DNA of 64,000 bases from an uncultured Clostridium sp. (GTDB lineage: Bacteria; Bacillota; Clostridia; TANB77; CAG-508): NCBI GenBank assembly GCA_902462295.1, contig CABQAZ010000006.1, forward strand, positions 2,089-66,088, in the 5' to 3' direction. Made by a program: the position numbers and the translations under genes. The notes beneath the pieces are model-generated. The model had not been told where the DNA came from and made no database searches. It was given only the letters and a program-made list of their open reading frames with translations. This document shows positions 14,546 through 41,759 of the stretch, piece by piece (position 1 is the first letter of the stretch; every line of letters starts with the position of its first letter).

Positions 14546-14559
14546 GAGGAAATTAATTG

Positions 14560-15102: not shown

Positions 15103-15117
15103 AAGGTGGAATAAAAA

Positions 15118-15471
15118 ATGAATGAAAAATATATTTATTTAGACTATGCTTCAAATACACCAGTAGATAAAGAGGTTTTAGACACATTTAATGAAACAAC
15201 ATTTAGATTGTACTCAGGCTGTTGGTAAAGTGTATTAGGGACAAAGGCAACAGAATTTAAAAATAAGCTAGAAGAATATGGAATATGTGTATCTATAAAA
15301 TCTGCATGTACAGTAACAATAACACCATCAAGAATTGTATTATCAATGACACATGATAGAAAAAGGTCATTAGCATCATGGAGAATAAGCTTGAGTCATT
15401 TGGTGACAGAAGAAGAGATAAATGAATTTTTAGAGATATTTGATAAACTAGTTAGGGAGGAACAAAACTAA
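15118..15471 (+). pseudogene. Cysteine desulfurase (NifS/IscS-type) remnant with large internal deletion
   Basis: N-terminus MNEKYIYLDYASNTPVDKEVLDTFNE is joined out of frame to a C-terminal tail (EYGICVSIKSACT...ISLSHLVTEEEINEF). Confidence 0.7.
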
Positions 15472-15473
15472 AA

Positions 15474-15615
15474 TATGAAATTCAAGAAATTCTAATGCAT
15501 TTTATGGGTCCTTTCCACTATCGTGAACTCTTACCATAAAATTACATAGAATTTCTAAAATTTCTCCATGCACATTCATTATTTCATTCAAAACTTATAT
15601 TTAAAGACTTCTTGA
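15474..15615 (-). repeat. MITE-like repeat, truncated copy (left arm of a 142-bp inverted pair)
   Basis: 138 of 142 nt match the reverse complement of 18529-18670. Confidence 0.9.
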
Positions 15616-15748
15616 TGTTAATATATTAAAATCTTAATCATGTACCATTTTTATACAAAATTTGCATTTTACATAAAAAAGTGATACAATATATAACATA
15701 GAAAATTTTTTGAAACCAAAAGTATTAAGAATGACAGGAGGTAGAAAG

Positions 15749-16654
15749 ATGGATTACTATACAAGAGATGAATATTGGAAAAACAGAATAATACGGGAAT
15801 CAGATTATAAACTATATTTTTTTGATTTAAGAGGTATTTATACTTGTGCAACAGTATATGAAGTAAAAGACATGAGATTGGAAGGATTAAGTTTTTTTGG
15901 AGAACATTATTATGGTATTAACATAAGAATATATCCTCAATATGTGCAGGGGGCTATACTTGCTTTAGAAGTTGGAGATGATGTAAAAAAGTTTATAGAA
16001 TATATTGAAATGATAAAACTTTTTTATAAGGAGAATCCTATAGGAATATTTAATACCATTTATCTGATAAAAGACCAAAAATATTATTTTTTTAATAGTA
16101 ATGGTATATATTCTTGTTTGGATGAAAAGAATGTGTTAAAATCTGGAATAAGAGTAAAAGTATATACACAACATTATGATTATAAGTGTAGGGCTTTAAG
16201 TCTTAATGTGTTTGGAAAATTTTCAGGAAAAGAGTATGAACTAGATTTATTGAGAAAAGCTTTTGACAAATTGAAAATTGGTGATAAACTAGAAAAAGTA
16301 GATGAGTACTATAATGAAGCACTTAAAGAAAAGTCAAAGTTTCTTATTTCTGTAGAAAGATTTGTTACACGAATTGAAAGTCCAGATTTTGTACGTCTTC
16401 CAGAAAATTCTAAAGAAACAACATTTGATTATATTCATGTTGATGTTAATATTGTAACACAGTGGGACTCTGATAAGATAGAATTTATCAAGAGAAATTT
16501 ACAAGGAATCACTAAAATGGTTTTTAAAAGCATTGAAAACAATAGAAGATTTAAGAAATATGGAGTACCAATCAATTTCTTAAGCTTGTCTAAAGTTACA
16601 GTAAGGAGTGACTTAAATAGTTTACATTACGTATTTGAATTAAAAGAAAAGTAA
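15749..16654 (+). CDS. Hypothetical protein with internal YFF(D/N)xxGIY(T/S)C duplication
   Basis: ORF with AGGAGG RBS before ATG 15749 (track start 15710). No family recognised. Confidence 0.6.
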   Translation: MDYYTRDEYWKNRIIRESDYKLYFFDLRGIYTCATVYEVKDMRLEGLSFFGEHYYGINIRIYPQYVQGAILALEVGDDVKKFIEYIEMIKLFYKENPIGIFNTIYLIKDQKYYFFNSNGIYSCLDEKNVLKSGIRVKVYTQHYDYKCRALSLNVFGKFSGKEYELDLLRKAFDKLKIGDKLEKVDEYYNEALKEKSKFLISVERFVTRIESPDFVRLPENSKETTFDYIHVDVNIVTQWDSDKIEFIKRNLQGITKMVFKSIENNRRFKKYGVPINFLSLSKVTVRSDLNSLHYVFELKEK

Positions 16655-16657
16655 TCC

Positions 16658-16696
16658 AATGAATGGAGTCTAAAATAGGCTCCATTCATTTTTTCT
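16658..16696 (+). terminator. Rho-independent terminator
   Basis: AATGAATGGAG, 11-nt loop, CTCCATTCATT, then TTTTT. Confidence 0.85.
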
Positions 16697-16730
16697 GTTT
16701 CACAATATCTTAAAATTATAATAAAAACTA

Positions 16731-16788
16731 TTGACAAAAAATATACCTTGTAATACAATGTAAACAACAGCATAGTATTACAAGGTAT
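16731..16788 (+). promoter_or_regulatory. Promoter plus 14-bp perfect inverted repeat (likely PadR operator)
   Basis: TTGACA, 17 bp, TACAAT. ATACCTTGTAATAC (16743-16756) pairs with GTATTACAAGGTAT (16775-16788). Confidence 0.65.
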
Positions 16789-16804
16789 AAAAGGGAGGTA
16801 AGTT

Positions 16805-17143
16805 ATGAAAATTAACAAAGAATTACTAAAAGGTAGTACTGAATTAATAGTATTAAGTGTGTTAGAAAATGAAAACATGTATGGATATCAGATGATAAAA
16901 AAATTAAAAGAAAAATCTGAAGATATATTTGAATTTCAAGAAGGAACATTATACCCAATATTACATAAATTGGAAGAAAAAGGATGGATTATATCTTATT
17001 GGGATGAAATAGGAGGAAAAAAGAGAAAATATTATTCAATAACTAAAGATGGAAAAAAGAAATTGAAAGATAAAAAGGAAGAATGGCAAATATTTAGTTC
17101 GAGCATGAATAAAATAATTGGAGGTGTTTTATTTGAAAGCTAA
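16805..17143 (+). CDS. PadR family transcriptional regulator
   Basis: LKGSTELIVLSVLENENMYGYQMIKKL...GTLYPILHKLEEKGWI...RKYYSITKDGKK. Confidence 0.9.
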   Translation: MKINKELLKGSTELIVLSVLENENMYGYQMIKKLKEKSEDIFEFQEGTLYPILHKLEEKGWIISYWDEIGGKKRKYYSITKDGKKKLKDKKEEWQIFSSSMNKIIGGVLFES

Positions 17144-18509
17144 AGATTTTTTAGAAAATGTATGTAGTAATATAAAATATAAACCTGCAAGCAAACAAAT
17201 TTCAGAAGAACTAAGAACACATATAGAAGAAGCACAGGTGGAAATTATCGGTAAAGGATATTCTGAAGAAGAAGCAGAAGAGATTGCAGTTAAAAAGATG
17301 GGAAATGCAAAAGAAATAGGGAAAAAATTAAATAAGATTCATAGACCAAAGTTGGATTTAGGGATTTTAATTACTGCTATTGTTTTTAGCATATTAGATG
17401 GATGGCCAAGTATATTTTTGGGAATTGATATGTTATGGAATAAACTATATTTAGGAATCAATAATTTTATGACTGCTAAAATGATATATATAATATCTAT
17501 TTCTACAATGATATTGGCAATATGTTTATATTTTTTTGATTATAGAAAAATTTATAAGTATTCAAAAATAATATATATGTTAGCAACTATACTTAATATA
17601 GTCAGCTGTATTAGAGGTGAGAGGTATAATGGAAATATAATATGGGGATTAGAGCCTTTTACCAATGTATCAGCAACAGTTTTTTCAGTGCCACTTTATG
17701 TTATTGCTTTTTCAGGATTAGTACAAGATTATATACAAGACAAAAAGGATAATTATTTTAAATTGATTTTATTAAGTATTTTGTCAGTGATACTATCTCT
17801 AATAATAAATTTTGTTTCAGGTTTTGTACTAGCAATAGTATATATGATGATAAGTATAGTATTATTAGCAAAAAAATCTAAATACAAAAGAATTATTAGT
17901 GTGTATAGTTGTTCTATAATTGGTGTATTTTTATTAACAACAATTATATGTGTTATTCCTACCAAAATAATAAATAAACAGGAAAAATTAGAATCATCAT
18001 ATTGGTTAGGAATAGATACAATGCAAAAAGAAAAAATAGAGATAACAAGACAAGAGGTTATTCAAAATTCAAAATTATTTGGTAGTGCAGAAATAGAATT
18101 CAATCCTGAAAATATTTATGCTTTTTCAAAATGCATATTTTTAAGTGTATTATCAAAATATGGATGGGTTACTAGCATAAGTTTTGCAATAATAATAATT
18201 GGATTTGAAATTAAAATATTAATAGATGCAATAAACATAAAAGATAATTATGGGAAAACTATTATGTTGGGAATATCAATATTATATTTAACTCAAACAT
18301 TAGGAAACATAGCTATGAATTTTGGGTTTGGTGTTATTGCAGAATTTAGCTTACCATTTATTAGAGGAGGAATGACAGAAAATCTTATGAATATTATTTG
18401 TTTGTCATTAATGTTGTCGATTTATAGAAGAAAAGATATAAATTTTGAAGAGCCACAAAAGTCAAAAGTATTAGCAAAAATTGAAGATTATTTCTTTGAA
18501 AAGTGTTAA
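17133..18509 (+). CDS. Polytopic membrane protein: PadR-associated N-terminal domain plus divergent FtsW/RodA (SEDS)-like C-terminus
   Basis: Multiple TM segments and a tail LPFIRGGMTENLMNIICLSLMLSIY resembling the SEDS PF(I/V)SYGGSS motif. The start is ambiguous (17118 ATG or 17133 TTG). Confidence 0.55.
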   Translation: MKAKDFLENVCSNIKYKPASKQISEELRTHIEEAQVEIIGKGYSEEEAEEIAVKKMGNAKEIGKKLNKIHRPKLDLGILITAIVFSILDGWPSIFLGIDMLWNKLYLGINNFMTAKMIYIISISTMILAICLYFFDYRKIYKYSKIIYMLATILNIVSCIRGERYNGNIIWGLEPFTNVSATVFSVPLYVIAFSGLVQDYIQDKKDNYFKLILLSILSVILSLIINFVSGFVLAIVYMMISIVLLAKKSKYKRIISVYSCSIIGVFLLTTIICVIPTKIINKQEKLESSYWLGIDTMQKEKIEITRQEVIQNSKLFGSAEIEFNPENIYAFSKCIFLSVLSKYGWVTSISFAIIIIGFEIKILIDAINIKDNYGKTIMLGISILYLTQTLGNIAMNFGFGVIAEFSLPFIRGGMTENLMNIICLSLMLSIYRRKDINFEEPQKSKVLAKIEDYFFEKC

Positions 18510-18529
18510 TATTAGATTATTATTAGTAT

Positions 18530-18716
18530 CAAGAAGCCTTAAAATATAAGTTTTGAATGAAATAACGAATGTGCATGGAGAAATTTTAGAAATTCTATGT
18601 AATTTTATGGTAAGAGTTCACGATAGTGGAAAGGACCCATAAAATGCATTAGAATTTCTTAAATTTCATAATAAACTGAGGAATGGAATGAAAAACTTAT
18701 ATTTTAAGGCTTCTTG
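18530..18716 (+). repeat. MITE-like element, full copy (187 bp) with 25-bp terminal inverted repeats
   Basis: CAAGAAGCCTTAAAATATAAGTTTT (18530-18554) pairs with AAAACTTATATTTTAAGGCTTCTTG (18692-18716). No ORF. Confidence 0.8.
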
Positions 18717-18842
18717 TAAGTATAATAAGTAAAATGTACTATTTTATTTATTTCTATCTTGCAATTTTTGGTAAAAATTTTTTTATTAATGTAATAGTAA
18801 AAAGTACAATTAGTTAAGCATACATTGTACAGAGGTGAAAAT

Positions 18843-19007
18843 ATGTTATTAAAAATTAAAGAAACCGAAAATAAAGAAGAATTTGAAAATAAAGTAGCAC
18901 ATTTAAAAGCAATACTAATTCAAGAATATATAAATCAATTAGAAGTAAATGCAAAAACAAAAAATGAAATAAAAAAAGAAGTAATAAAAAAACTGCAAAT
19001 GACTTGA
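18843..19007 (+). CDS. Small Lys/Glu-rich protein (54 aa) immediately upstream of the recombinase
   Basis: GAGGTG RBS 5 nt before ATG 18843. No family recognised. Confidence 0.45.
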   Translation: MLLKIKETENKEEFENKVAHLKAILIQEYINQLEVNAKTKNEIKKEVIKKLQMT

Positions 19008-19052
19008 AATATATATTATTAATATTATATTAAACAAAAGGAGTTTATGCAG

Positions 19053-20708
19053 ATGAAAGTGATAGCAATTTATTCAAGAAAATCAAAGTCAACAGATAGA
19101 GGAGAATCTATTATAACACAAATGAAACTTTGTGAAGAGTATATAAAGAAAAACTATTTTGACGAAGAAATTAAAATTATATATTATAATGAGGGAGAGG
19201 GGAAATCTGGAGCAGACTCTCAAAGAATAAAATTTAATAAATTAATGAGAGATGCTAAAGAGAAAAAGTATAATGTTTTAATATGTTATAGATTGGACAG
19301 AGTTGCAAGAAATGTTTCAGATTTTTCAGATTTAATAGATGAATTAACATCATATAACATTAGTTTTATTTCAGTAAAAGAACAATTTGATACAACAACG
19401 CCTATGGGTCGTGCAATGATGTATATTGCAAGTGTATTTGCACAATTAGAAAGAGAAATAGGAGCAGAAAGAATAAAAGATAATCTTACTGAACTTGCTA
19501 AATCTGGAAGATGGCTTGGAGGAACTACACCAACAGGATATAAATCTATAGGATTTGAGACAATACAAATAAAAGAAATAAATGAAAATAATGAAATTGA
19601 AAAAAAGAGAAAAAAAGCATATAAACTTGAGAAACAAAAAGAAGAAGTTGATTTAATTGAATTGTTATTTAGAAAAATTGAAGATTTAAAGTCATTAACA
19701 GCGGTAGAGACATATCTGATTAATAATAATATACTTACTAAAAACGGAAAAAGATATACTAGATTTACGCTTTCTAATATTTATAGAAATATAGTGTATG
19801 CAAAAAATGATATAGAAATGTACCAATACTTAAAAGAGAAAAACATTGAAGTTTATGCTGTAGAACAAGATTTTAATGGCAAACAGGGAATGATTGCCTA
19901 TAATAAAACAAAACAGCAAAAACATAAGTCTGTAATTAAGAATGAAATGGATGAATGGATAATATCTGTAGGTAAACATGAGGGATACATTGATGGAAAG
20001 AGATGGATTAATATTCAAAACATATTAGATAGAAATCAAAATAAAAGATATAGAAGACCTAGAAAAAATAAAGCATTACTATCAGGTATATTAAAATGTG
20101 AATGTAATGGGTATATGAGACCAAAAATTAGTTCTGGTAGGACTGACCAATATGGAAATGATAGATTTTTTTATATGTGTGAAATAAAAGAGTTAAGCAG
20201 ATTACATAAATGTGATATAAAAAATATTGATGGAAATGAATTAGATAGAGAATTGCTAATGCAAATGAAACAATGGTATGCACCAAATTTTAAAATAGTA
20301 AAAGAGTTAAAAGGAATAGTAAACAATAAATGTGAGCAAACTGAAAATGAAATAGAAATTGATAGATTGAGCAAATTATATAAAAAAAATGAAAAAAATT
20401 TAATAAATTTGATAGATAGAATAAAATATATAGATATTAGTTTAATAGATGATATAAATAAAGAAATTAAAAGTTTAAAAGAGGAAAATAAGCAAATAAA
20501 TGAAAGTATAAATGAATTAATGAAAAATTATAATAATTATAATTTGGAAATACCTGAAGATAAAATTTCAGAATTAGCTATTCAAGTAATAGAAAAATCA
20601 TTTAAAGCATTTTATGGATTGGATATTTTAGAGCAAAGAAAAATTTTAAGAATGTTCATATCAAAAGCTGTATGGAATGGAGAATATGTTCAAATAGATT
20701 TTTTTTAG
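19053..20708 (+). CDS. Large serine recombinase (SpoIVCA-like)
   Basis: VIAIYSRKSKSTDRGESIITQ (catalytic Ser region), YRLDRVARN, resolvase core, then recombinase and zinc-ribbon (CECNG...C) plus coiled-coil tail. Track start 19047. Confidence 0.9.
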   Translation: MKVIAIYSRKSKSTDRGESIITQMKLCEEYIKKNYFDEEIKIIYYNEGEGKSGADSQRIKFNKLMRDAKEKKYNVLICYRLDRVARNVSDFSDLIDELTSYNISFISVKEQFDTTTPMGRAMMYIASVFAQLEREIGAERIKDNLTELAKSGRWLGGTTPTGYKSIGFETIQIKEINENNEIEKKRKKAYKLEKQKEEVDLIELLFRKIEDLKSLTAVETYLINNNILTKNGKRYTRFTLSNIYRNIVYAKNDIEMYQYLKEKNIEVYAVEQDFNGKQGMIAYNKTKQQKHKSVIKNEMDEWIISVGKHEGYIDGKRWINIQNILDRNQNKRYRRPRKNKALLSGILKCECNGYMRPKISSGRTDQYGNDRFFYMCEIKELSRLHKCDIKNIDGNELDRELLMQMKQWYAPNFKIVKELKGIVNNKCEQTENEIEIDRLSKLYKKNEKNLINLIDRIKYIDISLIDDINKEIKSLKEENKQINESINELMKNYNNYNLEIPEDKISELAIQVIEKSFKAFYGLDILEQRKILRMFISKAVWNGEYVQIDFF

Positions 20709-20711
20709 AAA

Positions 20712-21098
20712 TTGTGTTTCCACAATGTATGTATAGACAATGAGATTTTAATGCATTTTAGATCTACAAAGAAATTGAACAACGAGGTTTATTTAAATGA
20801 GCCAATAGGAAAAGACAAAGATGATAATGTGGTTACATTACAAGAGGTACTTGAAAATGAAGAACGTAGTGTTGAGGAATCTGTTGATTTAAAAATGAAA
20901 GTGAAACTATTATATGAAAAGATGAAAAGTGTATTAAAAGATAGAGAACGTACTATTTTAGAATTGCGTTTCGGACTTGATGGACATAAACCTAAAACTC
21001 AAATTGAAATAGCAAAAGAAATGGGGATTTCCCGTTCTTATGTTTCTAGAATTGAAACAAAAGCTATAGGAAAATTAGCAAAAGAAATTAAAGAATAA
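20712..21098 (+). CDS. sigK: Sigma-K, 3' segment (spoIIIC-like); authentic coding from about 20730
   Basis: CIDNEILMHFRSTKK...LELRFGLDG...TQIEIAKEMGISRSYVSRIETKAIGKL (regions 3 and 4). Confidence 0.9.
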   Translation: MCFHNVCIDNEILMHFRSTKKLNNEVYLNEPIGKDKDDNVVTLQEVLENEERSVEESVDLKMKVKLLYEKMKSVLKDRERTILELRFGLDGHKPKTQIEIAKEMGISRSYVSRIETKAIGKLAKEIKE

Positions 21099-27280: not shown

Positions 27281-27898
27281 TTATAGAACAGCACCTAAAA
27301 CCAATATACCTAAATTATCTTCATAAATTTTTTTGAATTGTGTCATAGGTAGTGGATTAGTGCCTAAGCCAACTTCAATAGTATATCCAGGTCTGTTATA
27401 ATTTTGAATAAACCAGTCTTTATATCCGGCAAAGCTTGAATTATAAGGTGTAGGTTCAAGAGAATATCCACTTACATTAGCAAATTGTCTTCCAATAAAT
27501 AAAGAATTTGGCGGATTGTAGTTTTGAGACTGCAAATAAATCACTTCGCCTTGTGAATGATATGCTAAAATTAGTCTAAAATTGTGTTGAAGTGTAAAAT
27601 TATAAACAGCTAAAGCTTCAGGTTCAGTAAGTGGACCATATCCAACAAAGTCACGTGGTGCGGGTGTTGTGAAGCCTTGCTCATATTTTATTTCACGTGC
27701 TTTTTCCCATTCTGCAGGAAATTGAAGATTTAAGTCTACACCACGAATATTGGCTTTCCAACCATCTGGAAAAGGAATTGTTGCAAATCCATAAGCTATT
27801 TTTTCTGCCTGTTTATAAGATGGAGATGATTTTGGGAGTGCACCTGTGACTAAATCTACCCCGGTTGGATTAATTTTCATAGGAGTAAAAGCTAGCAA
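27281..27898 (-). CDS. M14 peptidase (gamma-D-glutamyl-L-diamino acid endopeptidase I type), 3' segment; authentic coding from about 27862
   Basis: NPTGVDLVTGALP...DFVGYGPLTEPEA...AYHSQGEVIY...FAGYKDWFIQ...GYTIEVG. Carboxypeptidase-A-fold C-terminal half with no N-terminal half. Confidence 0.8.
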   Translation of the reverse strand: MLAFTPMKINPTGVDLVTGALPKSSPSYKQAEKIAYGFATIPFPDGWKANIRGVDLNLQFPAEWEKAREIKYEQGFTTPAPRDFVGYGPLTEPEALAVYNFTLQHNFRLILAYHSQGEVIYLQSQNYNPPNSLFIGRQFANVSGYSLEPTPYNSSFAGYKDWFIQNYNRPGYTIEVGLGTNPLPMTQFKKIYEDNLGILVLGAVL

Positions 27899-28033
27899 TC
27901 ATCTGTGAATAAAAAATCTAAATATAAAAACACATTTGAATACAATGATATTTAATAAATTTCTGAAAAGATAAGTAAGTAATTGACTAAATCAAATAAT
28001 TATGTTACAATAAATGTATAGGAGGTACATAAA

Positions 28034-29335
28034 ATGGAACGAAAAATGTCGAAAAAATTGCTAGAATGGAAAAATGATACAGAAAAGACACCATTAATTT
28101 TATATGGAGCTAGACAAGTAGGAAAGACCTATACTATATTATCATTTGGAAAAGAGAACTATAAGAATGTAGCATATATAAATTTTGAGGATAATAGTGA
28201 GATATCAAAAATTTTTGAACAAGATTTAGAAGTAGAAAGAATTATAAAAGAATTAAGTGTAAAGTTAGGAATAACCATATTAGAAGAAGATACATTAATA
28301 TTTTTTGATGAGATACAAGCTTGTGAAAGAGCTTTAACATCATTAAAATATTTTGCAGAAAGTAAGACAAAATATCATGTTGTAGCAGCAGGTTCATTAC
28401 TAGGGATTGCAATTAATAGACAAAAATATTCTTTTCCAGTTGGAAAAGTAAAAATGCTTACATTATATCCATTAGATTTTGAAGAATTTTTGTGGGCATT
28501 AGACAAAAAAGATTTGGCAGATATGATAAGACAAGCTTTTTCTGAGGATAAAGAATTTTCATTACATAGTTTAGCAAATCAGTATTATAGATTATATTTG
28601 GCAATTGGTGGAATGCCTAGAGCAATTTTAGAATACAAAGAAAAACAAGATATGGATTTTGTAACAGCAATTTTGAAAGATATTAATAATTCATATATAG
28701 CAGATATGGCTAAATATGCAAGTTCCACAGAAACAACAAAAATTATGGCAGTATATAATATTATTTCAGCACAATTAGCTAAAGAAAATAAAAAATTTCA
28801 ATATAAATTAATAAAATCAAGTGCAAGAGCTTATGAATATGAAACAGCAATTAATTGGTTAAATGCTTCAGGAATCATAAATCAATGTACAAAAATCAAA
28901 GAAGGAAAATTGCCACTTTCAGCATTTATAGAGCCAGAAAGTTTTAAAATCTATATGAGTGATGTGGGATTATTGTGTAATAAATTTGGAATACCTACTA
29001 ATATTGTAATTGTGGAAAATGATAACATGAATGATTTTAAAGGAGCTTTGGCTGAAAATTATGTATGCAATAGTTTAGTTCAATGTGGATTAAAACCATA
29101 TTACTGGGAATCTAATGGAAAAGCAGAAGTGGATTTTGTAGTGCAAGATAAAGAGGGAAATATTATTCCGATTGAAGTTAAATCAAGTATACATACAAGG
29201 TCAAAAAGTCTAAATGTTTTTAAAAGTTTATATAAAATTCCTTATTCTATTAGGATATCAACTAAAAATTTTGGATTTGAAAATGATATAAAATGTATTC
29301 CTTTGTATAGTGTATTTTGTTTAGATAAGTTATAA
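28034..29335 (+). CDS. AAA-type ATPase with DUF4143-like C-terminal domain
   Basis: Walker A GARQVGKT, Walker B IFFDEIQ. Overall arrangement of the COG1373-type ATPases. Confidence 0.7.
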   Translation: MERKMSKKLLEWKNDTEKTPLILYGARQVGKTYTILSFGKENYKNVAYINFEDNSEISKIFEQDLEVERIIKELSVKLGITILEEDTLIFFDEIQACERALTSLKYFAESKTKYHVVAAGSLLGIAINRQKYSFPVGKVKMLTLYPLDFEEFLWALDKKDLADMIRQAFSEDKEFSLHSLANQYYRLYLAIGGMPRAILEYKEKQDMDFVTAILKDINNSYIADMAKYASSTETTKIMAVYNIISAQLAKENKKFQYKLIKSSARAYEYETAINWLNASGIINQCTKIKEGKLPLSAFIEPESFKIYMSDVGLLCNKFGIPTNIVIVENDNMNDFKGALAENYVCNSLVQCGLKPYYWESNGKAEVDFVVQDKEGNIIPIEVKSSIHTRSKSLNVFKSLYKIPYSIRISTKNFGFENDIKCIPLYSVFCLDKL

Positions 29336-29618
29336 GTGTTTTGATGAAGCGGATATAAAAAGTGTCCACTTCGGATAGGCTCAAAGTGTCCGTTTGAAAG
29401 CTTTTGTGAAGTGTTTCAAGCGGACATTTTGACTATATAAAAAATCCTTATATTTCAATGAAAATTAAGAAATAGGGTGTGTCGTGTTTAAAGGGTAAGA
29501 TACAGGGGCAAGGTTAAAGTTGGAAAATAGGATGTATCTTGTAAAAGATGGAAAGAAGTAGATGGAGGATAGAATAAAGGGCGAAATTAGAATTAGGATA
29601 AAATATAAATTTTCTTAA

Positions 29619-30669
29619 TATAGGTTTACAATAGATATGTCACACTAAAGAATAGAAAAAGGAAATACCAATATGATATAATGTTTTTACCACAAAACTA
29701 ATATCGAAAGAAGGTATTTCCTATGAATAGTATAACACAAGATATAATATTTAAGCAATCAGTTGTAGAATATTCATTAAAACATGGAGTGACAGAAGCA
29801 GCAAAAAGATATAAACAGCATAGAAAAACAATATACAGATGGAGAGAAAAGTATGACGGAAGCAGAAAATCATAAGTAAATAAATCAAGAAGACCCCATT
29901 CACATCCAAATCAACATACCCAGGAAGAAATAAAAATGATAAAGAAATATAAGGCACAAAATCCAGATGTTGGGTTAGTGGTATTGTGGGTAAAATTGAT
30001 GAAAAACGGATATACAAGGCAAATAACGAGTTTGTATAGGGTGATGCAAAGGCTAGGAATATATAAAAAGACACCAAGTAAGATGTGAAATATGTGCCAA
30101 AGAAGTGTATGTCAAAAGAATTAAAAGAGCTATAAGAAAAATATTATCAATATACAGCAATAGATGAGTATACAAGGCAAAGAGTATTATGGGCGAGCAA
30201 AGAACATAGTACATATGCATTAACACAATTTATAGAAATAATAATAAAGAAATTTAAATATAAAATAGAATGTATACAAACAGATAATGGATTTGAATTT
30301 ACAAATAGATTGAATTCAAAAAAAGCCAAAGAGAAGACGATGTTTGAAAAGAAGCTGGAAGAGCTAGGAATAGAACATAAACTAATAAAGCCAAGAACAC
30401 CAAGACACAATGGAAAAGTTGAAAGAAGTCATAGAAAAGACCAAGAAAGATTTTATTACAAGAGAATATTTGTAAGTTTTGAAGATTTTAAAGAAAAATT
30501 AAGGCATTGGTCAAGAGAGTACAATAACTTTCCAATGAAACCATTAGGATGGAAAAGTCCAAATGAGAAATATGAGGAATTTCAAGCATTGTAGAGCCAA
30601 CATATCATATTTGGTATATGAAACACTAGATTTATCAATAAAGTGTGACATATGTTTGACAAACCTACA
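29619..30669 (+). mobile_element. Decayed IS (IS481-family-like, rve-type transposase)
   Basis: About 26-bp imperfect terminal IRs (TATAGGTTTACAATAGATATGTCACAC and GTGTGACATATGTTTGACAAACCTACA), flanked by a 25-bp direct repeat. Confidence 0.7.
29724..30594 (+). pseudogene. Transposase pseudogene (premature stop, internal deletion/frameshift)
   Basis: The HTH part MNSITQDIIFKQSVVEYSLKHGVTEAAKRY...DGSRKS ends in a stop. The DDE part (DVKYVP...YQYTAIDEYTR...IQTDNGFEF...PRTPRHNGKVERSH) is in other frames. Confidence 0.75.
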
Positions 30670-30760
30670 TAGGATAAAATATAAATTTTCTTAAAAACTA
30701 GAAAAAATAAGAATAATATGGTACAATTTTATTATAAAAAGATTTTTATAGGAGGATAAA

Positions 30761-31180
30761 ATGAATTCTAAAGCATATACAGAAGTTAATTTTATCATAA
30801 ATGAAATGAGTAATGAATTGTCAAATAAAATTCCAAAAGAGATAAAAGAAATGATTAAAGAAAAAATGGATGAAACATATGAATTTTACATAGATGATGA
30901 AGAATGGGAAGAAAAGGAATTGTTAGAAGATACTGAAAAAATTTTATCAGTTTTATATACAGATTATATAGCAAATGAAGAAGAAAAAAAGGTAATTTTA
31001 AATAAAGAAAAGATTATTATGCAAAAAAAATACGAGAACACAATTCAAACAAAGAATTTATGCGATGTATTTCCAAATAAAAAATATTTTAATGAAGAAA
31101 AAGAAATAGTGAAAGTTGAATATAAGAAAACATGGTATCAAAAAATAATTGAATATATAAGGCTAAAGATTAAGATATAA
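30761..31180 (+). CDS. Hypothetical acidic protein (139 aa)
   Basis: ORF with AGGAGG RBS. No family recognised. Confidence 0.55.
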   Translation: MNSKAYTEVNFIINEMSNELSNKIPKEIKEMIKEKMDETYEFYIDDEEWEEKELLEDTEKILSVLYTDYIANEEEKKVILNKEKIIMQKKYENTIQTKNLCDVFPNKKYFNEEKEIVKVEYKKTWYQKIIEYIRLKIKI

Positions 31181-31233
31181 AACAACTAAAAGTGTAAGTG
31201 AAATTTATATAATAATTAATATTGGGAGGAAAA

Positions 31234-33966
31234 ATGTCAGTTAATTTAAAATATAAACATCAGCAAAAAACGTATCAACTTATGTGGCAAGAATTAGAAA
31301 AATATGGAATGGCAGCATTTTCATATCCAACAGGATGTGGAAAATCATTTCCGCCACTTAAGTATATAGAAGATTATTTAAATCATCAGCAGAAAGGAAA
31401 TACATTAATTGTTGTTCCATATAATATTATTGCTGATCAATTTAAAGATTATATAAAACAATATGTGGATAATGGAAATAAAAGATTAAAAAATAAAAAT
31501 ATTATGGTAATTACATATTCAAAACTTGCTTTATGGATGAAATATGCAAAAAATTATGAAGTCGATATAGCAATTTTTGATGAAGCTCAAATGCTTGGTG
31601 CAGAAACTTATGAACCCGCATTTGAAAAATTAAGAGAACAGTATTCAGAAGCAAAATTGATAGCAATGACTGCAACACCAGAAAGAATGGATAACAGAAA
31701 TATGTTATATGAAAAATTTGGAGAACATGTAGTATATGAAATGAGTTTAACCGAGGCATTGAGTGGTTCTAAAGAGGGGGAAGTCATTTTAAAAGCACCC
31801 AAATATGTCAGAGTAATATCTCAATTAAAACCACTTCTTTCAATATATGAAGAAAAAATTGCTAAATATAATAACCCTAATAGAAAACCAATCCTATCGG
31901 AAAAATATCAAAGATTAGCTAATATTGTAAGCAATGCTCCTGGTATGGAAGATGTCTTAGCCCAAGCAATTACTAAGAAAAATGGAAAATTTATTGTTTA
32001 TTGTAAAAATAGAGAAGATATGTTCAAAAAAATGAAAGATGCAAAAGCAATATTTGGAAAAGTAAATGATAATATAAAAATGGATTATTTGTTATCTATT
32101 GATTCTAATGGAACAGGAAAAACAACCCCACAGAACTTAAAATCATTAAGAGAATTTGAAGAAAGTGAATACAATGATACCCTTCAACTACTATTTTGTG
32201 TAGATATGCTTAACTTAGGAAAACACATTGATGGTGAAAAGCTTGATGGAGAAGTATTTTTTAGAGAAACTTATTCATCTCAAGTATATAAACAGCAAAT
32301 GGGGAGAATTATGGTTCCAGAAGATAAAGGAGAACAAAAAATAATAATAGATGCTGTAAATAACTGGCTTAGACAGGTAGATGCTTTTGATGAACTAGTT
32401 CAAGCTATTGGTATTGGAAATGGAAAAAATCCAGAAAATAACTATGATTTATTTAAATTAACAGCTGAAGAAATTGAGTTTCTAGATTTGTTAAGAGAAA
32501 TTGGTGAAGAACTAAGATATAACTGCTTTGGTACATATGAACAAATAATTGAATGGTTAGAAACTCATGATGGTAAAATGCCACAAGCTAGACTTAGAAA
32601 AAACGGCAGATATATTAACGGTGAGGAACTTGAAGAAAATGAACTTGAAGAAAGAAAATTATATGGTAGATGGCTTAACTGCCCTGAAAAGAAAATGCTT
32701 GATAAATATATAGGAATAGACATTAAAGATATACCAGAAGAATGGCAAGAAAAAATACAAAAATTAAGAAGTTTTGGGTTAGGACTAAAGAAAAAAGGGG
32801 TATATGAGAGATTAATAGAATGGTTAGATATGCATAATGGAAAAATGCCTAAAGCATCAGCTACATTTAGAGATGAAAACGGAGATTATATTAGAGCTGA
32901 AAATCTTTTGCCAGAGCAAAAAGAAGAAAAAAATTTATATAATGATTGGACTAAAAGCGATGAAATCAAAATGCTAAAAAAATATATTGGTGTTTCTCTT
33001 GAAGAAATACCAGAAAGCGAAGAATGTAAAGAAATAATAAAGATACTTAGATCTTATGGACTAGGAATTTCTTTGCATGAAGAGTATATTGACTTTTTAA
33101 AAAGATACGGAAGAGAACCACGCCAAGGAATAAGAAGAAATGGAAAAACACTTGGAAAAAATGAAACAACAGATGAGCAGAAAAAAGAAAAAAGTTTATA
33201 TTATAGATGGAATAAATCAGAAGAAAAAAAGATTTCAGATGAATATTCTGGAATGCCATTAGATGAGGTCCCAGAAAATTGGAGAAAAAAAATTGAAGAA
33301 CTCCGTATATTTAACGTAGGTAATAAAGATATAAGACCTTTGTTTGAAAAAATGGTTGAATGGCTTGAAATTCATAATGGAAGAACTCCTTTTGGGTATA
33401 ACGGTATTCCGGTTTCAGAATTAAATGAAGAATTGTTAGCAGAAAGAACACTATTTAATGAATGGATTAATAGTGATTTGAAAAAAACAACTTGGAAATA
33501 TATTAGCCGTGATTTATCAGAAGTACCTGAAGAATGGAGAGAACAAGTTGGAAAAATGAGAGAATTAGGAGTTGGGCTAGATATTTTTGATGAAATGCTT
33601 ATATGGTTTAATGAAGGTCATAAAGGAAAATTGCCTTTAGCTAGATTTTGTAAAGATGGACATGTTATTAGCTCCACTCAAATGACAGAAGAACAAAAGA
33701 AAGAATCTAGTTTTTCTCAAAGGTGGAGAATAAGTCCATTAAAAAAAGCCTTAGATACCTATGCCGATAAAACTATTGATGAAATTCCAATAGAATGGAG
33801 AAATCAAATATCAACATTAAGAAAAAATGGAATATTTGGTAAAACGAAACAGGAAAGAATTACAGAAAGATTAAAAAAATCAGTAGCAAGAAATGTAGAA
33901 TATAATTCAAATGTAAGAGAGGAGATTGGGAAAAGTATTAGAAAGGAGAAGGAAAAATTAGTATAG
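31234..33966 (+). CDS. SF2 helicase (DEAQ box) with five tandem helicase-associated (HA)-like repeats
   Basis: PTGCGKS, FDEAQMLG, MTATPER, QQMGRIM. The C-terminal half is about 85-aa repeats (EWLxxHxGxxP...LYxxW...IPEEW...LRxxGxG). Confidence 0.8.
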   Translation: MSVNLKYKHQQKTYQLMWQELEKYGMAAFSYPTGCGKSFPPLKYIEDYLNHQQKGNTLIVVPYNIIADQFKDYIKQYVDNGNKRLKNKNIMVITYSKLALWMKYAKNYEVDIAIFDEAQMLGAETYEPAFEKLREQYSEAKLIAMTATPERMDNRNMLYEKFGEHVVYEMSLTEALSGSKEGEVILKAPKYVRVISQLKPLLSIYEEKIAKYNNPNRKPILSEKYQRLANIVSNAPGMEDVLAQAITKKNGKFIVYCKNREDMFKKMKDAKAIFGKVNDNIKMDYLLSIDSNGTGKTTPQNLKSLREFEESEYNDTLQLLFCVDMLNLGKHIDGEKLDGEVFFRETYSSQVYKQQMGRIMVPEDKGEQKIIIDAVNNWLRQVDAFDELVQAIGIGNGKNPENNYDLFKLTAEEIEFLDLLREIGEELRYNCFGTYEQIIEWLETHDGKMPQARLRKNGRYINGEELEENELEERKLYGRWLNCPEKKMLDKYIGIDIKDIPEEWQEKIQKLRSFGLGLKKKGVYERLIEWLDMHNGKMPKASATFRDENGDYIRAENLLPEQKEEKNLYNDWTKSDEIKMLKKYIGVSLEEIPESEECKEIIKILRSYGLGISLHEEYIDFLKRYGREPRQGIRRNGKTLGKNETTDEQKKEKSLYYRWNKSEEKKISDEYSGMPLDEVPENWRKKIEELRIFNVGNKDIRPLFEKMVEWLEIHNGRTPFGYNGIPVSELNEELLAERTLFNEWINSDLKKTTWKYISRDLSEVPEEWREQVGKMRELGVGLDIFDEMLIWFNEGHKGKLPLARFCKDGHVISSTQMTEEQKKESSFSQRWRISPLKKALDTYADKTIDEIPIEWRNQISTLRKNGIFGKTKQERITERLKKSVARNVEYNSNVREEIGKSIRKEKEKLV
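32535..33846 (+). repeat. Five tandem coding repeats of about 255 bp (protein-level HA-like modules)
   Basis: Repeat starts: YEQIIEWLETHDGKMP, YERLIEWLDMHNGKMP, EEYIDFLKRYGREP, FEKMVEWLEIHNGRTP, FDEMLIWFNEGHKGKLP. Confidence 0.75.
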
Positions 33967-34451
33967 GCTAAAAATATCCGTTTTAAGGCTTTTTATGAAT
34001 ATTGGAAGCGGACATTTTAACTATATGGAAAATACTTATTAGTATTTTTTGAGAAGTTTGATAAAAATTAAATTTTTTTTATACACAGGGGAGGACAAAA
34101 TCGATTTTTATGAGCAAATAAGTGAAGGAGTTAAAACTCTTTCACTTATTTTAGTATTTTTCAAAAAAATAATCATAAAATTAAATAAAAAAGGAAATAA
34201 AACAAATGGCAAAACAAGAACAATTGCAATTTTTTTGCATATTCAAAGAAGAAAAAGTCGATTTTCAAACATTATTAGAAAAGGTATTTATAGAATTTAT
34301 CCAAGAAAAAGAAAATAAGAAGAAATCTTCTAAATCTTGAAATACAAGAAAGTTTCAAGAATATAGTTAAATTTTTTTTGAACTTTGTAAAATAAGAAAG
34401 AAATGATATAATATTCTTTAGCAGATGATTGCTAAAGAATAGGAGGCGAAA

Positions 34452-36074
34452 ATGATCTTTAGCAATTACAATAATCAAACATTTAAAGTAGCAATATATA
34501 TACGACTTTCACGAGAAGATGGAGACAAACAAGAAAGTGAAAGTATTGGAAATCAAAGGGACATCATAATGAGATACATTAAAGAAAATCATTTGCAATT
34601 CATAGACGAATATGTAGATGATGGAATATCTGGGACAACATTCGAAAGACCTGGTTTTCAAAGAATGATATCTGACATTGAGCAACAAAGGATTAACATG
34701 GTTATAACAAAAGACTTATCAAGGCTTGGAAGAGAGTATATACAGACAGGTCAATACATTGAAAAATATTTTCCAGAACACAATATAAGATATGTTGCTA
34801 TAAATGATGGGATTGATACATTTAGCAATACATCATGTAATGATATAACACCATTTAAATCTATTTTAAATGATATGTATGCAAAAGATATTTCAAAAAA
34901 AGTCAGAAGTGTTATAAAAGAAAAACAAATAAAAGGCGAATATATGTGTACAGTTGCACCATATGGATATAAAAAAGATAAAGTTCAAAAAAATCATTTA
35001 GTAATTGATGAAAATACAAGCTATATAGTAAAAGATATTTTTAACATGTATTTAAATGGAAATAGTGTTTATTCAATAAGAGATAATCTAAATAAAAGAA
35101 AAATTCAATCTCCAAGTGGATATGCAAAGAAACAAATTGAAATAAAAAAGTGGAACAGTGTAACAATTTTAAACATATTATCAAACAAGGCTTATATTGG
35201 AACAACAGTAGCCAATAAAAGAACTAATTTATCTTACAAATCTAAAAAAAGAATTAAGGTACCAATAGAAGAACATATCATAACAGAAAACACTCATGAA
35301 CCTATAATAGAAAAAGAAGATTTTGAAAAAGTACAATTTTTATTAGCAAAAAAAAGCATAAATAAAAAAAATAGGCATGAATACTTATTTAGAGGATTAA
35401 TTAAGTGCAAAACATGTCACAGCAATCTTGAAGTTGGTGCAAAACTAACAAAAAAAGGTAAAGAAATTAAAAATCCAATTCCATACATAACTTGTAGAAA
35501 TTCAAAAAAAGGAATTTGCCAACCACAACATTTAAATTACTATAAATTTGAAAAAGAAACATTAGAATATTTAAAAAAATTTTTAACTTTATATACAGAT
35601 AAAGACGAATTAAAGGAAATTTATAAGGAATATAAAAATAATAAAGATATTAATATTGCAAAGTACAAAAAAGAAATAAAGTTAATAGAAAGTAAGATAA
35701 GTAACATTTCAAGCCAAATTGATAACATATATTTTGACAAAATCAACCATGTTATATCACAGGAGGATTATTTTAGATATACAAATAAAATTATAAATGA
35801 AAGAGATTCTTTGATAAATCAAAAAAATGAAATAAACAAACTTATAAATAGTATAAAAGAAAAACAAGGTAAATATTCAGAAAAGGAATTAAATGAAACA
35901 GTTAAAGAATTTTTAAATAATCCATCCAAAAAAACAATATATAGATTAATAGATTATATTGAAATAGATGAAAATAAAAAAATATATATTCATTTTGCAT
36001 TTAGTAAATTAAGTTGTATAAGTGATTGGATAGATGAAACAATTGAATTAAAAGAGTTACTAAATCAGGAGTAA
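34452..36074 (+). CDS. Large serine recombinase
   Basis: VAIYIRLSREDGDKQESESIGNQ (catalytic Ser), TKDLSRLGREY, recombinase domain, Cys-rich zinc ribbon (CKTCHS...C) and coiled-coil tail. Confidence 0.9.
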   Translation: MIFSNYNNQTFKVAIYIRLSREDGDKQESESIGNQRDIIMRYIKENHLQFIDEYVDDGISGTTFERPGFQRMISDIEQQRINMVITKDLSRLGREYIQTGQYIEKYFPEHNIRYVAINDGIDTFSNTSCNDITPFKSILNDMYAKDISKKVRSVIKEKQIKGEYMCTVAPYGYKKDKVQKNHLVIDENTSYIVKDIFNMYLNGNSVYSIRDNLNKRKIQSPSGYAKKQIEIKKWNSVTILNILSNKAYIGTTVANKRTNLSYKSKKRIKVPIEEHIITENTHEPIIEKEDFEKVQFLLAKKSINKKNRHEYLFRGLIKCKTCHSNLEVGAKLTKKGKEIKNPIPYITCRNSKKGICQPQHLNYYKFEKETLEYLKKFLTLYTDKDELKEIYKEYKNNKDINIAKYKKEIKLIESKISNISSQIDNIYFDKINHVISQEDYFRYTNKIINERDSLINQKNEINKLINSIKEKQGKYSEKELNETVKEFLNNPSKKTIYRLIDYIEIDENKKIYIHFAFSKLSCISDWIDETIELKELLNQE

Positions 36075-36097
36075 AAATAACTGTGAAAATTAAGTCA

Positions 36098-36447
36098 ACC
36101 CCATCAGGATTAACCAGAGGAACAATATAAATAGAAACAGAATCAAATAAACGTCTAGCAGAAAAATTCCAAATAGTTAAATTATTCTGTATTGCATTAC
36201 AGTATTCATATAAAAATTCTAAAAGAACAATAGAAGTTATCCACTCATTTGCATGGTAACTTGCAGAATAAAAAACTTCTTTTTGTCCACGTCCAACTCT
36301 AACATAAGGAATATCTTTACCCATAATACTCTTTCCAATAGAACCTGTTTGAATAAATGGATAAGACTGTTTTAAGATATTCAAATTTTCATACAATAAA
36401 TTAGAACTAAAAACAAAATCGTCCATAAAAACCTCTTTTTCCGGCAT
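36098..36447 (-). CDS. M14 peptidase, 5' segment (the ORF as it stands reads on into the element to 36001)
   Basis: GKSIMGKDIPYVRVG...SASYHANEWITS (HxxE zinc motif)...IVPLVNPDGVDL, then unrelated residues. Confidence 0.8.
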
Positions 36448-36569
36448 ATTTTAAATAAATGCCATAAATTTCTTGCAATATTATATGACAAAATAAAAAA
36501 TATGTGATATAAATATAATAGGTTCAAAAACTTTTATAAATTAAAAATTGTAAAAAGTAGGAGAAAGAT

Positions 36570-37406
36570 ATGGATAAAAAACAAAGAGGTCAGAAAGGAA
36601 GACATAGTTCAAATACATATAGGACTGTTGTAAAAAGAGAAAATAGAAAAATAAAAAAAAGAAAATTAAATAAAAAGAAAGTTGCGATATTAATTATTTT
36701 AATAATAATGATAGGAATATTAATAACAAAGACCAAAAAGAAAAACAAAATAACAGAAACATCAGTAGAACAGAATTCAGAAATAACAAGTGAAACAAGT
36801 ACAAATGAAGAAAATCAAGAACAAAATCCAATAGAAGAAAAAGAAATAAATGATTGGAGATTAACACTTGCAAATTATGAAAATCTTTTACCAGAAAATT
36901 TTGAAGTAAAAGTAGAAAGCATAGATGGAACTCGACAATTTGATGCAAGAGCAATAGGAGAATTGAAAGACATGATGAATGCAATGAGAAATGATGGAAT
37001 AAGTAATATATGGGTACAATCAGCATATAGAAGTGTAGCAAGACAAAAAGAATTATATGATAATAGTGTACAAAAATACTTACAACAAGGAAAAACTAAA
37101 GAAGAAGCAGAAGAATTAACAAATGACTATATAAACAAACCAGGTTCAAGTGACCATAATTTAGGATTAGCTGTAGATTTTAATTATGTAGATAATAAAT
37201 TTGAAAAACTTGATGGATTTAAATGGCTTAAAGAAAATGCAGAAAACTATGGATTTATTTTAAGATATCCGAAAGATAAAGAAGATATAACAAAAATATC
37301 TTATGAATCATGGCATTGGAGATATGTAGGAGTAGAACATGCAAAAAAAATGAATGAACTTAACATGTGTTTAGAAGAGTATGTGGAATATTTAAAGAAA
37401 CAATAA
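36570..37406 (+). CDS. D-alanyl-D-alanine carboxypeptidase, VanY/M15B family, membrane-anchored
   Basis: SAYRSVARQKELY, GSSDHNLGLAVDF and ESWHWRYVG motifs. Confidence 0.85.
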   Translation: MDKKQRGQKGRHSSNTYRTVVKRENRKIKKRKLNKKKVAILIILIIMIGILITKTKKKNKITETSVEQNSEITSETSTNEENQEQNPIEEKEINDWRLTLANYENLLPENFEVKVESIDGTRQFDARAIGELKDMMNAMRNDGISNIWVQSAYRSVARQKELYDNSVQKYLQQGKTKEEAEELTNDYINKPGSSDHNLGLAVDFNYVDNKFEKLDGFKWLKENAENYGFILRYPKDKEDITKISYESWHWRYVGVEHAKKMNELNMCLEEYVEYLKKQ

Positions 37407-41119: not shown

Positions 41120-41759
41120 ATGAGGAAAAATTTAAAAATTTTAATAATAATAGTAACTTTTATAATAATAGGTGTTATAATAATAGGAGTTTTTATAAAT
41201 AATAATAATAAAATTATTGTGTGTATAGATGCTCGGACATGGTGGAACAGATGTTGGAGCGTCTAATGATAATAGATATGAAAAAGATGATACTTTGAAA
41301 GTTGCAAATATTGTACGTAAATATCTTGAGTCAAAAAACATAAAGGTTGTTATGACTAGAGATAATGATAAAACACTTACATTGCATGAGAGATGTAAAA
41401 TTGCAAATAAGAAAAAGGCTGATGCATTTGTTTCTATACATAGAAATAGTGCTGATACAGGAAGTGGAGTTGAATCATGGATTAATAGCAGACAAAGTCA
41501 AGATGATATAAATTTAGCAACGAATATTATGAATTACATATGTAAAACTAAAATTCAAAATAATAGAGGAATTAAATATGGAACAATAAAAGGGGAAGAT
41601 ACAGATTATTATGTTTTAAATAATACTAAGATGCCAAGTTGTTTAATAGAGTTAGGGTTTATTTCAGATGAGAAAGATAATGAATTGTTCGATGAAAATA
41701 TAGAAGATTATTCTAAAGCGATTGCAGATGGTATTATAGAAACTATAAATAATAGATAA
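41120..41759 (+). pseudogene. N-acetylmuramoyl-L-alanine amidase (Amidase_3) with +1 frameshift after the membrane anchor
   Basis: MRKNLKILIIIVTFIIIGVIIIGVFINNNNKIIVCIDA in one frame and GHGGTDVGAS... in the next. There is an extra C near 41232-41234. Confidence 0.7.

Follow-up and report, generated by a model that had tools for sequence, protein, structure and literature searches.

We analysed a window of 64,000 nucleotides, with a GC content of 26.6%, from an uncultured Clostridium sp. (contig CABQAZ010000006.1 of assembly GCA_902462295.1, positions 2,089 to 66,088), in which a gene for a peptidase of family M14 is split in two by an element of 8,240 bp that encodes its own large serine recombinase (LSR). 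On balance, this element is probably a new sporulation-gene-intervening element, the LSR of which, together with a small protein of 44 amino acids (aa), would reconstitute a late peptidase gene of the mother cell. The structural hallmarks of this class are present: one coding sequence (CDS) is interrupted in a manner that allows precise restoration of its open reading frame (ORF), and the element possesses a recombinase of its own as well as left and right attachment sites (attL and attR) that share a short core. By analogy to the characterized members of the class, excision would be expected to take place in the mother cell.

An earlier note on this DNA had proposed that the two halves of one M14 peptidase gene lie at either end of the element and can be joined in frame at an ACCCC core to give about 305 aa, and this proposal holds. 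On the minus strand, an ORF with possible starts at 36447 and 36426 covers the zinc motif YHANEW up to ..IVPLVNPDGVDL and then continues for 30 codons of unrelated sequence, which is that of the element, to a stop codon. A second minus-strand ORF encodes M14 peptidase from ..NPTGVDLVTGALP.. on, contains the motifs GVDLVTGALP, AYHSQGE and TIEVG and ends with a stop at 27281. The plus-strand pentamer ACCCC (GGGGT on the gene strand) is found at both junctions (27858-27862 and 36098-36102) in identical codon phase, and joining the halves in silico at this core results in a protein of 308 aa, or of 301 aa if translation starts at the ATG at position 36426. The shorter protein is more likely the true product, because this ATG is preceded by an AAGAGG ribosome binding site (RBS) and the resulting length equals that of the orthologues.

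The joined protein matches the Pfam profile Peptidase_M14 (PF00246) in one stretch that spans profile positions 3-283 of 286 (E=2e-32; 113 bits vs a cutoff of 21.6), and with this full-domain match and an HxxE motif followed by a downstream histidine it belongs to family M14. When aligned to carboxypeptidase O, the histidine and glutamate of HANE fall on the HxxE zinc ligands and the histidine of YHSQG likewise falls on a zinc ligand. As the HxxE ligands are contained in the 5′ piece and the second zinc histidine and the catalytic glutamate in the 3′ piece, neither half should be active alone. With respect to a more specific name, NCBIfam gave no match, the PDB returned only distant carboxypeptidases, the name fields of the protein clusters were blank and plasmid annotations did not go beyond 'M14 family zinc carboxypeptidase'.

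Thousands of intact homologues of the joined product were retrieved from 5.8 billion protein clusters, and the best of them are 301 aa in length and share 91%, 89% and 84% identity with the query over 98% of its length. The joined protein aligns without gaps to the intact 301-aa orthologues, in which the junction residues VNPDGVDLVTG are invariant. Both halves are similarly diverged from the same best orthologue (dN of 0.060 and 0.053) and hence represent one gene rather than two paralogues. Among the 80 closest species representatives of the GTDB, the gene is uninterrupted throughout.

To judge from their sequences, the att sites of the element have the standard site anatomy of serine integrases, in which the site of the element (attP) is an imperfect inverted repeat and that of the host gene (attB) is different. 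The reconstructed attP arms GAAAATTAATCCAACC and GAAAATTAAGTCAACC form a dyad with 14 of 16 matching positions around the central GG, or 17 of 20 when extended, and a 14/16 dyad occurs at a frequency of about 1e-5 among random pairs of 16-mers drawn from the window. The reconstructed attB is far less symmetric (10/20). Excision is predicted to leave the attB junction ATTGTTCCTCTGGTTAATCCTGATGGGGTAGATTTAGTCACAGGTGCACT in the chromosome and the attP junction ACTCCTATGAAAATTAATCCAACCGGGGTTGACTTAATTTTCACAGTTAT on the circle. The coordinates of the att sites and of all further features of the locus are compiled in Table 1.

Table 1. Features of the split M14 peptidase gene and of the element that interrupts it, in window coordinates
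Feature	Position	Strand	Remarks
Whole intervening element	27862..36101		8,240 bp between the two crossover dinucleotides; GC 26.7%, like the window
5′ part of M14 peptidase CDS	36101..36426	-	Start ATG 36426 with AAGAGG RBS; zinc motif HANE; alternative ATG 36447
3′ part of M14 peptidase CDS	27281..27860	-	Second zinc His (AYHSQGE) and catalytic Glu (TIEVG); followed by hairpin and T run
attL	36077..36126	-	Host arm ..GGTTAATCCTGAT, central GG 36102-36101, element arm GGTTGACTTAATTTTC; same junction in L122 and L163
attR	27837..27886	-	Element arm GAAAATTAATCCAACC, central GG 27862-27861, host arm GGTAGATTTAGTCAC
13-mer CAGATGATTGCTA	27893..27905	-	About 30 nt inside the attR end; inverted copy at 34422-34434 in the LSR leader
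σK-type promoter-like motif AC-N16-CATATAATA	36479..36505	-	Pattern match upstream of the peptidase gene
LSR, 540 aa, intact	34452..36074	+	Pfam Resolvase, Recombinase and Zn_ribbon_recom; PHROG integrase
σA-like LSR promoter TTGTAA-16-TATAAT, upstream TG	34385..34412	+	10/12 matches, extended -10
Small ORF, 44 aa (MAKQEQLQFFCIFKEEKVDF...; full MAKQEQLQFFCIFKEEKVDFQTLLEKVFIEFIQEKENKKKSSKS)	34206..34340	+	Candidate recombination directionality factor (RDF)
Intrinsic-terminator-like hairpin and T run, then σE-like motif TAGTATT-N15-CATAAAAT	34116..34181	+	Hairpin 34116-34151, motif 34152-34181
Cargo: AAA_14/DUF4143 ATPase	28034..29335	+	PADLOC candidate defence system PDC-S01 (PDLC04786), E=5e-169
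Degenerate insertion sequence (IS) transposase	29723..30594	+	Helix-turn-helix, middle and rve_3 fragments in separate short ORFs
Cargo: 139-aa acidic protein, pI 5.0	30761..31180	+	Without family match
Cargo: 914-aa ResIII/DEAD helicase	31222..33966	+	About five C-terminal repeats of about 90 aa

The LSR is a member of its family by domain content, since its PF00239, PF07508 and PF13408 domains each score above their cutoffs, and it ends with a stop codon 26-28 nt short of the crossover. This agrees with the size of 8.2 kb and the distance of about 25 bp given in the earlier note, and the annotation likewise reproduces the cargo listed there, that is, a DUF4143 ATPase, a dead IS, a small acidic protein and a repeat-rich helicase on a non-phage element. 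Pfam and PHROG annotation of the element yielded no phage structural genes, scans for Rfam RNAs and tandem repeats within it were negative, and a collection of phages contained no relative of the LSR above 43% identity. An identical LSR protein is encoded on five contigs, and the same split arrangement is present at 100% identity in independent ENA and Logan assemblies, which shows that it is not an assembly artefact. Samples with the element include ERZ27250556 and ERR636396.

The element of the window is a rare lineage ("site 1") of a very abundant family of LSR elements. A profile search delimited an LSR clade of more than 7,600 proteins at E<=1e-100, throughout which the motif YIRLSRED is invariant, and a metagenome scan with the LSR of the window returned 80 loci. 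Wherever the LSR is about 49-59% identical to that of the window and the flanks suffice for an assignment, it lies within an M14 peptidase gene, as on 21 of the metagenome contigs; the LSR of the window shows 50-52% identity to the LSRs of this second group; five further loci (L164-L168) also carry such relatives in the M14 gene, bringing the number of these contigs to at least 26. The elements on these contigs occupy a different position ("site 2"), which lies between the codons for ..KANI(R/N)G and VDLNLQFP at about query residue 156, vs about residue 116 (between NPDG and VDL) in the window. Their attL (..GGTTGGAAAGCAAATnTnAAT-GG-TGTGGATTTAAAAAACTACCAACCA) and attR (GTGGTTGGAAGTTTTTAAAGTCCACA-GG-TGTGGATTTAAATTTACAATTTCC) are conserved across the loci, and their attP, which includes ..AAGTCCACAGGTGTGGATTTAAAAAACT.., is a near-perfect dyad around GG (21/24 by visual count on the consensus). 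Each of the two sites encodes G-V-D-L, and the motifs in which they reside, NPDG and GxDxN, are the most highly conserved pair of the M14 family. In an assembly collection, one LSR (P0226) is indexed in 110 blocks and another (P0232) in 87, and those that were inspected lie inside the M14 gene. The site-1 type is restricted among the loci to the window itself (L162), L163 and L122.

Two of these loci are especially informative with regard to the window. In L122, the part belonging to the site-1 element is 96% identical to that of the window and the adjoining part of the host gene 85%, and the upstream neighbour is a dCMP deaminase gene, as in the intact locus L001, where the window has a VanY gene. 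Locus L093 stems from a sister lineage of the window organism, with syntenic ClpB, endonuclease and DUF3006 genes on the side of the C-terminal half (85-92% DNA identity). Its peptidase is 91% identical to that of the window and is interrupted by a site-2 element instead. This element (L093 6660-11630) is 5 kb long and carries an AbiEi/AbiEii toxin-antitoxin pair, a MazG-like protein and a methyltransferase.

The site-2 elements measure 3.4-10.1 kb, are devoid of phage structural genes and contain a conserved HTH_36 protein at their attR end. Across the relatives, the cargo is variable and of a defence type, comprising AbiEi/AbiEii, MazG-like proteins, a methyltransferase, an Eco47II restriction-modification (RM) system, TIR/ThsB-like proteins and Abi_2. 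Site-2 LSRs are 77-99% identical to one another, vs only 54-70% for the peptidases of their hosts, and the elements are 77-99.9% identical across hosts whose peptidase genes share only 54-75% identity. An 8.5-kb element is about 100% identical between sharp att boundaries in L164 and L166 (3200-11690), whose hosts have unrelated flanks and peptidase genes with 73-80% DNA identity. Such near-identical elements in diverged hosts imply that the elements move between species. The cargo of the element in L164 and L166 includes the Eco47II-type RM system and the TIR/ThsB-like proteins. A 9-kb blastn alignment between L164 and L166 had raised the idea that the C-terminal half of the gene travels with the element, which we rejected because the gene part is 73-80% identical and the identity of about 100% is confined to the interior of the att boundaries.

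Programmed excision by an LSR would call for a directionality factor, for which the 44-aa ORF upstream of the LSR gene is the candidate by analogy with known systems. Homologous ORFs of 45-51 aa are located directly upstream of the LSR gene in more than 23 loci (hidden Markov model search) and share the pattern C-I-F-x-E-E ... F-x-[DE]-[YF]-[IL]. The small ORF of the window was independently called as a gene in public assemblies and gave no match to Pfam, PHROG or PADLOC families. In size and position it is similar to the pairs sprB-sprA and CD1234/CD1231. An equivalent of the σA-like LSR promoter of the window is conserved in the site-2 elements (TTGCAA-17-TATAGT).

With regard to the expression of the small ORF itself, the σE-like motif of the window ends 25 nt before it and matches the Bacillus subtilis σE consensus at 13 of 15 positions. 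Sites of this kind occur at 0.18 per kb and strand in the window, which corresponds to a chance of about 1% in the 55-nt gap, and as a sign of sporulation control the motif is suggestive only. No strict σK motif was found upstream of the small ORFs. In the site-2 elements, the promoter of the small ORF lies about 55 nt before the start codon and is conserved across loci (L103 about 9600-9750, and about 20 other site-2 loci); it consists of TTGACA, the perfect palindrome ACACTT-N5-AAGTGT and then CATA, and could be a repressible σA promoter or a σE-like one of the form ATA-N16-CATA. The conserved HTH_36 protein at the far end of the element is a candidate repressor for this palindrome. In L082, L084 and L096 (about 9600-9750), the promoter and the small ORF are separated by some 110 inserted nt that include a GC-rich hairpin and resemble a miniature inserted repeat. 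A further repeated feature is the 13-mer of Table 1, whose inverted copy (34422-34434) forms part of a hairpin (CTTTAGCA..TGCTAAAG) that closely precedes the RBS of the LSR gene. Site-2 elements have an equivalent sequence, TAGATGATTAC, at both of the same places, and this repeat could represent an operator or a duplicated promoter or leader.

The earlier note had also connected the target gene to sporulation, a connection that is strengthened by its promoter region. The B. subtilis σK consensus is AC-N16/17-CATAnnnTA. Within 150 nt upstream, this motif is present in 33 of 78 orthologues of the peptidase gene vs 13 of 1276 other ORFs of the same loci (p=4e-34), that is, an enrichment of about 40-fold. 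In a profile anchored on CATAnnnTA (39 of 72 non-redundant sequences), the frequencies of A at -18 and C at -17 are 0.54 and 0.69, and G reaches only 0.03 where the G of a σA-type TTGACA would lie. The peptidase promoter of the window additionally scores as σ70-like (ATCACA-17-TATAAT) and σE-like. In such AT-rich DNA of an uncultured lineage, the strength of these matches lies in their enrichment, and as proof of which sigma factor acts they are weak. The peptidase gene of related loci is found beside Coat_F or near SpoIIR. In B. subtilis, yqgT is listed in the σE regulon (PMC3416734) and is filed under Peptidase_M14 as similar to EP1 of B. sphaericus (PMC10653849). Taken by its promoter and neighbours, the peptidase gene looks like a late-sporulation gene, putatively of the mother cell.

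In the window, a gene for a VanY-type D-Ala-D-Ala carboxypeptidase is transcribed divergently beside the peptidase gene (36570-37406) and an Amidase_3 gene lies 5 kb off (41229-41759), with a two-component system in between, so that the peptidase is situated amid cell-wall enzymes.

The same window contains a second split sporulation gene, as the earlier note had pointed out. The gene sigK is divided into two pieces (10483-10860 and 20712-21098) that both match SigK models, and the element between them has its own LSR at 19047-20708. A naive join of the sigK halves at the longest core is out of frame; the real core is revealed by the CIDN codons. The two LSRs of the window are 22% identical, and this only over the catalytic domain. 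Together with the different cargo, this means that both elements were acquired independently, in line with the note, and that 26 kb of one genome contain two intervening elements that are not related to each other. The element in sigK (about 9.9 kb; window 10483-21098) has cargo of a metal-resistance type instead of phage genes, namely a CsoR-type repressor (10913-11215), a P-type ATPase with an HMA domain (12350-14545), a DsbD-like membrane protein, an FtrD-like protein and a PadR regulator.

In the mechanism that we propose, a non-phage element of 8.24 kb would have been inserted by serine-recombinase attP x attB recombination between the NPDG and VDL codons. The LSR would be produced from its own σA-like promoter and the 44-aa ORF would act as RDF, as the analogy with the skin element of Clostridioides difficile suggests. 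Expression of the 44-aa ORF in the sporulating mother cell would then direct attL x attR recombination, by which the circle is excised and the peptidase gene rebuilt. The latter would be transcribed late, once the neighbouring sigK has itself been rebuilt, and the element would be kept in the forespore chromosome. It is the analogy with the C. difficile skin element from which we infer that excision takes place late in the mother cell. Extended to the whole family, and here with somewhat less than even confidence, one may tentatively picture LSR cassettes of 3-10 kb that carry anti-phage defence genes through gut Clostridia and find a developmentally safe harbour in a late, σK-dependent gene for a spore-wall peptidase. 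Two sub-lineages would have specialised on the sites between NPDG and VDL and between RG and VDLN, the protein of 44-51 aa would trigger excision in the mother cell, and in the window organism two rearrangements would be required, that of sigK first, with the spore keeping both elements.

Several observations weigh against such a programmed reconstitution of the gene. The excised form was not encountered: none of the 5.8 billion protein clusters exceeds 91% identity to the joined product, as a rebuilt gene would, the attP patterns of an excised circle gave 0 matches in viral contigs, and all contigs with the LSR of the window show the integrated form only. As assemblies rarely capture a form that is a minority and confined to mother cells, this absence is weak negative evidence. 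We also considered co-divergence of LSR and host gene as a sign of long vertical inheritance and found no correlation (Spearman 0.13), so that, from these comparisons, long-term retention of a split yet functional gene cannot be demonstrated. The dN/dS of the window peptidase relative to L093 or L001 is low (0.06-0.08, similar in both halves), but since the elements are recent arrivals, most of this constraint predates the insertion and is no proof of rebuilding. At some loci, the host halves are frameshifted (L084 and L166, both in the N-terminal half; L105; L108/L104) or the LSR gene is broken (L126 and L105), implying that in some hosts the insertion is permanent and the gene decaying. Moreover, an LSR 51% identical to that of the window is inserted in a peroxiredoxin-like gene (L101 9800-11906; also L099 and L100), which is cut after ..LSIDSNPSH and where a homologous 51-aa ORF again lies upstream of the LSR gene; the wider clade is thus not confined to sporulation genes. 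Finally, the promoter calls are consensus matches in DNA with 27% GC and should be read as such, the σE scan missed the sigK promoter used as a positive control, which renders all sigma-factor calls soft, and the TTGACA and operator palindrome of the site-2 small ORFs suggest control by a repressor rather than by a sporulation sigma factor.

Several of these points are what one would expect if the element were an ordinary mobile defence cassette, the strongest of the alternatives and one that we regard as serious, if less likely than not. The peptidase gene, being dispensable or silent during growth, would then serve as a safe landing site and be knocked out by the insertion, and excision would be sporadic or follow signals of the element instead of a mother-cell programme; the host would tolerate the loss as the cargo pays for it or the peptidase is non-essential. 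Near-identical elements in very different hosts without co-divergence fit this explanation well, as do the defence-type cargo (PDC-S01, AbiE, RM, TIR/ThsB, Abi_2), the relatives in the peroxiredoxin gene, the repressor-type promoter of the site-2 small ORFs, the decay of host halves or LSRs at several loci and the lack of an excised form among protein clusters, viral contigs and LSR contigs. It is less easily reconciled with the strong purifying selection on the gene family (dN/dS of 0.06-0.08), given that interrupted alleles are very common, and with the fact that most of these alleles retain both halves intact: in silico excision at the central GG gives a full-length ORF in the window and in 11 of the 14 site-2 loci for which both halves are available. 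In addition, the target possesses a mother-cell-type promoter, as do all experimentally studied targets of this kind (PMC10747680), and a σE-like motif precedes the small ORF of the window.

That the insertion is fixed and dead, with the peptidase gene being an early pseudogene that has not yet acquired stop codons, appears improbable. The degenerate IS inside the element and the decay documented in relatives speak for it, and so do two substitutions in the window peptidase, which reads YLQSQNY (27530-27550; residues 225-227) where the 120 intact homologues have YWQFQNY. Both changes, W to L and F to S, are unique and affect positions that are at least 95% conserved, and they could reflect an early relaxation of constraint or a quirk of the lineage. 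Overall, however, the window protein deviates at 3 of the 143 columns with a conservation of at least 95% among the 120 intact homologues, which is within the range of the homologues themselves (95th percentile, 6); because the reference set is biased to close relatives of the window, this decay test is informative only for the window and L093. Moreover, the LSR and the small ORF are intact, as are the two halves of the gene, both att arms, the promoter and the RBS, and the 96% identical element in another host (L122) indicates that the lineage was recently mobile. An assembly chimera, or halves from different paralogues, is hardly credible in view of the identical arrangement in the independent ENA and Logan assemblies, the colinearity and equal divergence of the halves relative to one orthologue, the synteny of L093 on the C-terminal side and an att architecture common to more than 25 other loci.

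We compared the proposed intervening element to already characterized systems. The papers of 2017-2023 describe sporulation-gene-intervening elements in sigK, spsM, spoVFB, spoVR, gerE and yabG, and a full-text search of our literature library for a peptidase, yqgT, M14 or zinc carboxypeptidase as target of such an element found none, in keeping with the earlier note, which was not aware of one in this peptidase family. The closest parallel with regard to control is skinCd in the sigK gene of C. difficile, in which the LSR CD1231 is expressed from a σA promoter and the small RDF CD1234 (72 aa) under σE/SpoIIID (PMC5025042). Like skinCd, the element of the window is an LSR element in a mother-cell-type gene of a clostridial genome, with a σA-type LSR promoter, a small candidate RDF and precise restoration of the frame in silico. 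Unlike skinCd, its target is an M14 peptidase gene and not sigK, its LSR is unrelated beyond the family level (the skin LSR of the window itself shows 22% identity), its candidate RDF has 44 aa and is encoded directly upstream of the LSR, and its family clearly spreads horizontally between species.

The element gin in gerE of Bacillus cereus ATCC 10987 (PMC5595907) is likewise non-phage, with serine recombinases, restriction-modification genes as defence-type cargo, a small accessory factor (GirX) and, as proposed for our element, a late mother-cell gene as target. It differs in that gin, an element of Bacilli, has three recombinase genes and a 9-bp core, whereas our element encodes a single LSR, has its central GG within the core GGGGT and belongs to a family with two alternative sites in one gene. 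SPβ in spsM (SprA/SprB; PMC4191935, PMC5499854) and yin in yabG of C. botulinum (PMC10747680) resemble our element in the position of the LSR at the element end by the 5′ part of the gene, in a small RDF gene near the LSR gene and in a σK-dependent spore-envelope gene as target, the latter two by candidate features in our case. SPβ in particular demonstrates that horizontal mobility and developmental excision can be combined in one element (PMC4191935, PMC5499854). Both are prophages or prophage-like and 20-134 kb in size, in contrast to the 3.4-10 kb of the elements described here, which lack phage structural genes, and yin is known from a single strain, whereas the peptidase-element family occurs on hundreds of contigs. 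A more distant counterpart is the fdxN element of Anabaena, in which the LSR XisF rebuilds a gene by programmed excision in a terminally differentiated cell; this takes place in cyanobacterial heterocysts and involves the accessory factors XisH/XisI, and the XisF model (NCBIfam NF041201) is only the third-best match of our LSR with 85 bits vs a cutoff of 375, a similarity at the family level only.

On the side of the target, ENP1 of B. sphaericus and YqgT of B. subtilis (in MEROPS, gamma-D-glutamyl-meso-diaminopimelate peptidase I) share the M14 fold and the HxxE...H zinc site with the window protein. Close homologues of the latter have an N-terminal PG_binding_1 or LysM domain, whereas the window protein itself is without a wall-binding domain. 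At the position of the canonical carboxypeptidase motif NRNF it reads NLQFP, which would presumably fit an endopeptidase. Unlike that of yqgT, which is assigned to σE, the promoter of the window peptidase looks more of the σK type.

Programmed rebuilding during sporulation is known for no more than a handful of genes, almost exclusively from cultured Bacilli and from a small number of Clostridium species. The target proposed here, a peptidoglycan M14 peptidase gene, would be new and is hit by a large family on hundreds of contigs from uncultured gut Clostridia, and the picture of this family, with two alternative sites in one gene, a wide horizontal distribution among gut Clostridia and, beside a skin element, a second one of independent origin, appears to be undescribed. 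It would link intervening elements to the horizontal spread of defence genes and supply a candidate minimal RDF as well as two related LSRs for which attB and attP are defined, all of interest as orthogonal integrase tools. Should excision not be developmental, the family would still be a clear case in which mobile elements converge on a gene that growing cells keep silent. If, on the other hand, the peptidase gene does serve as a developmentally safe harbour, the window organism would need two independent programmed rearrangements to complete its late mother-cell programme.

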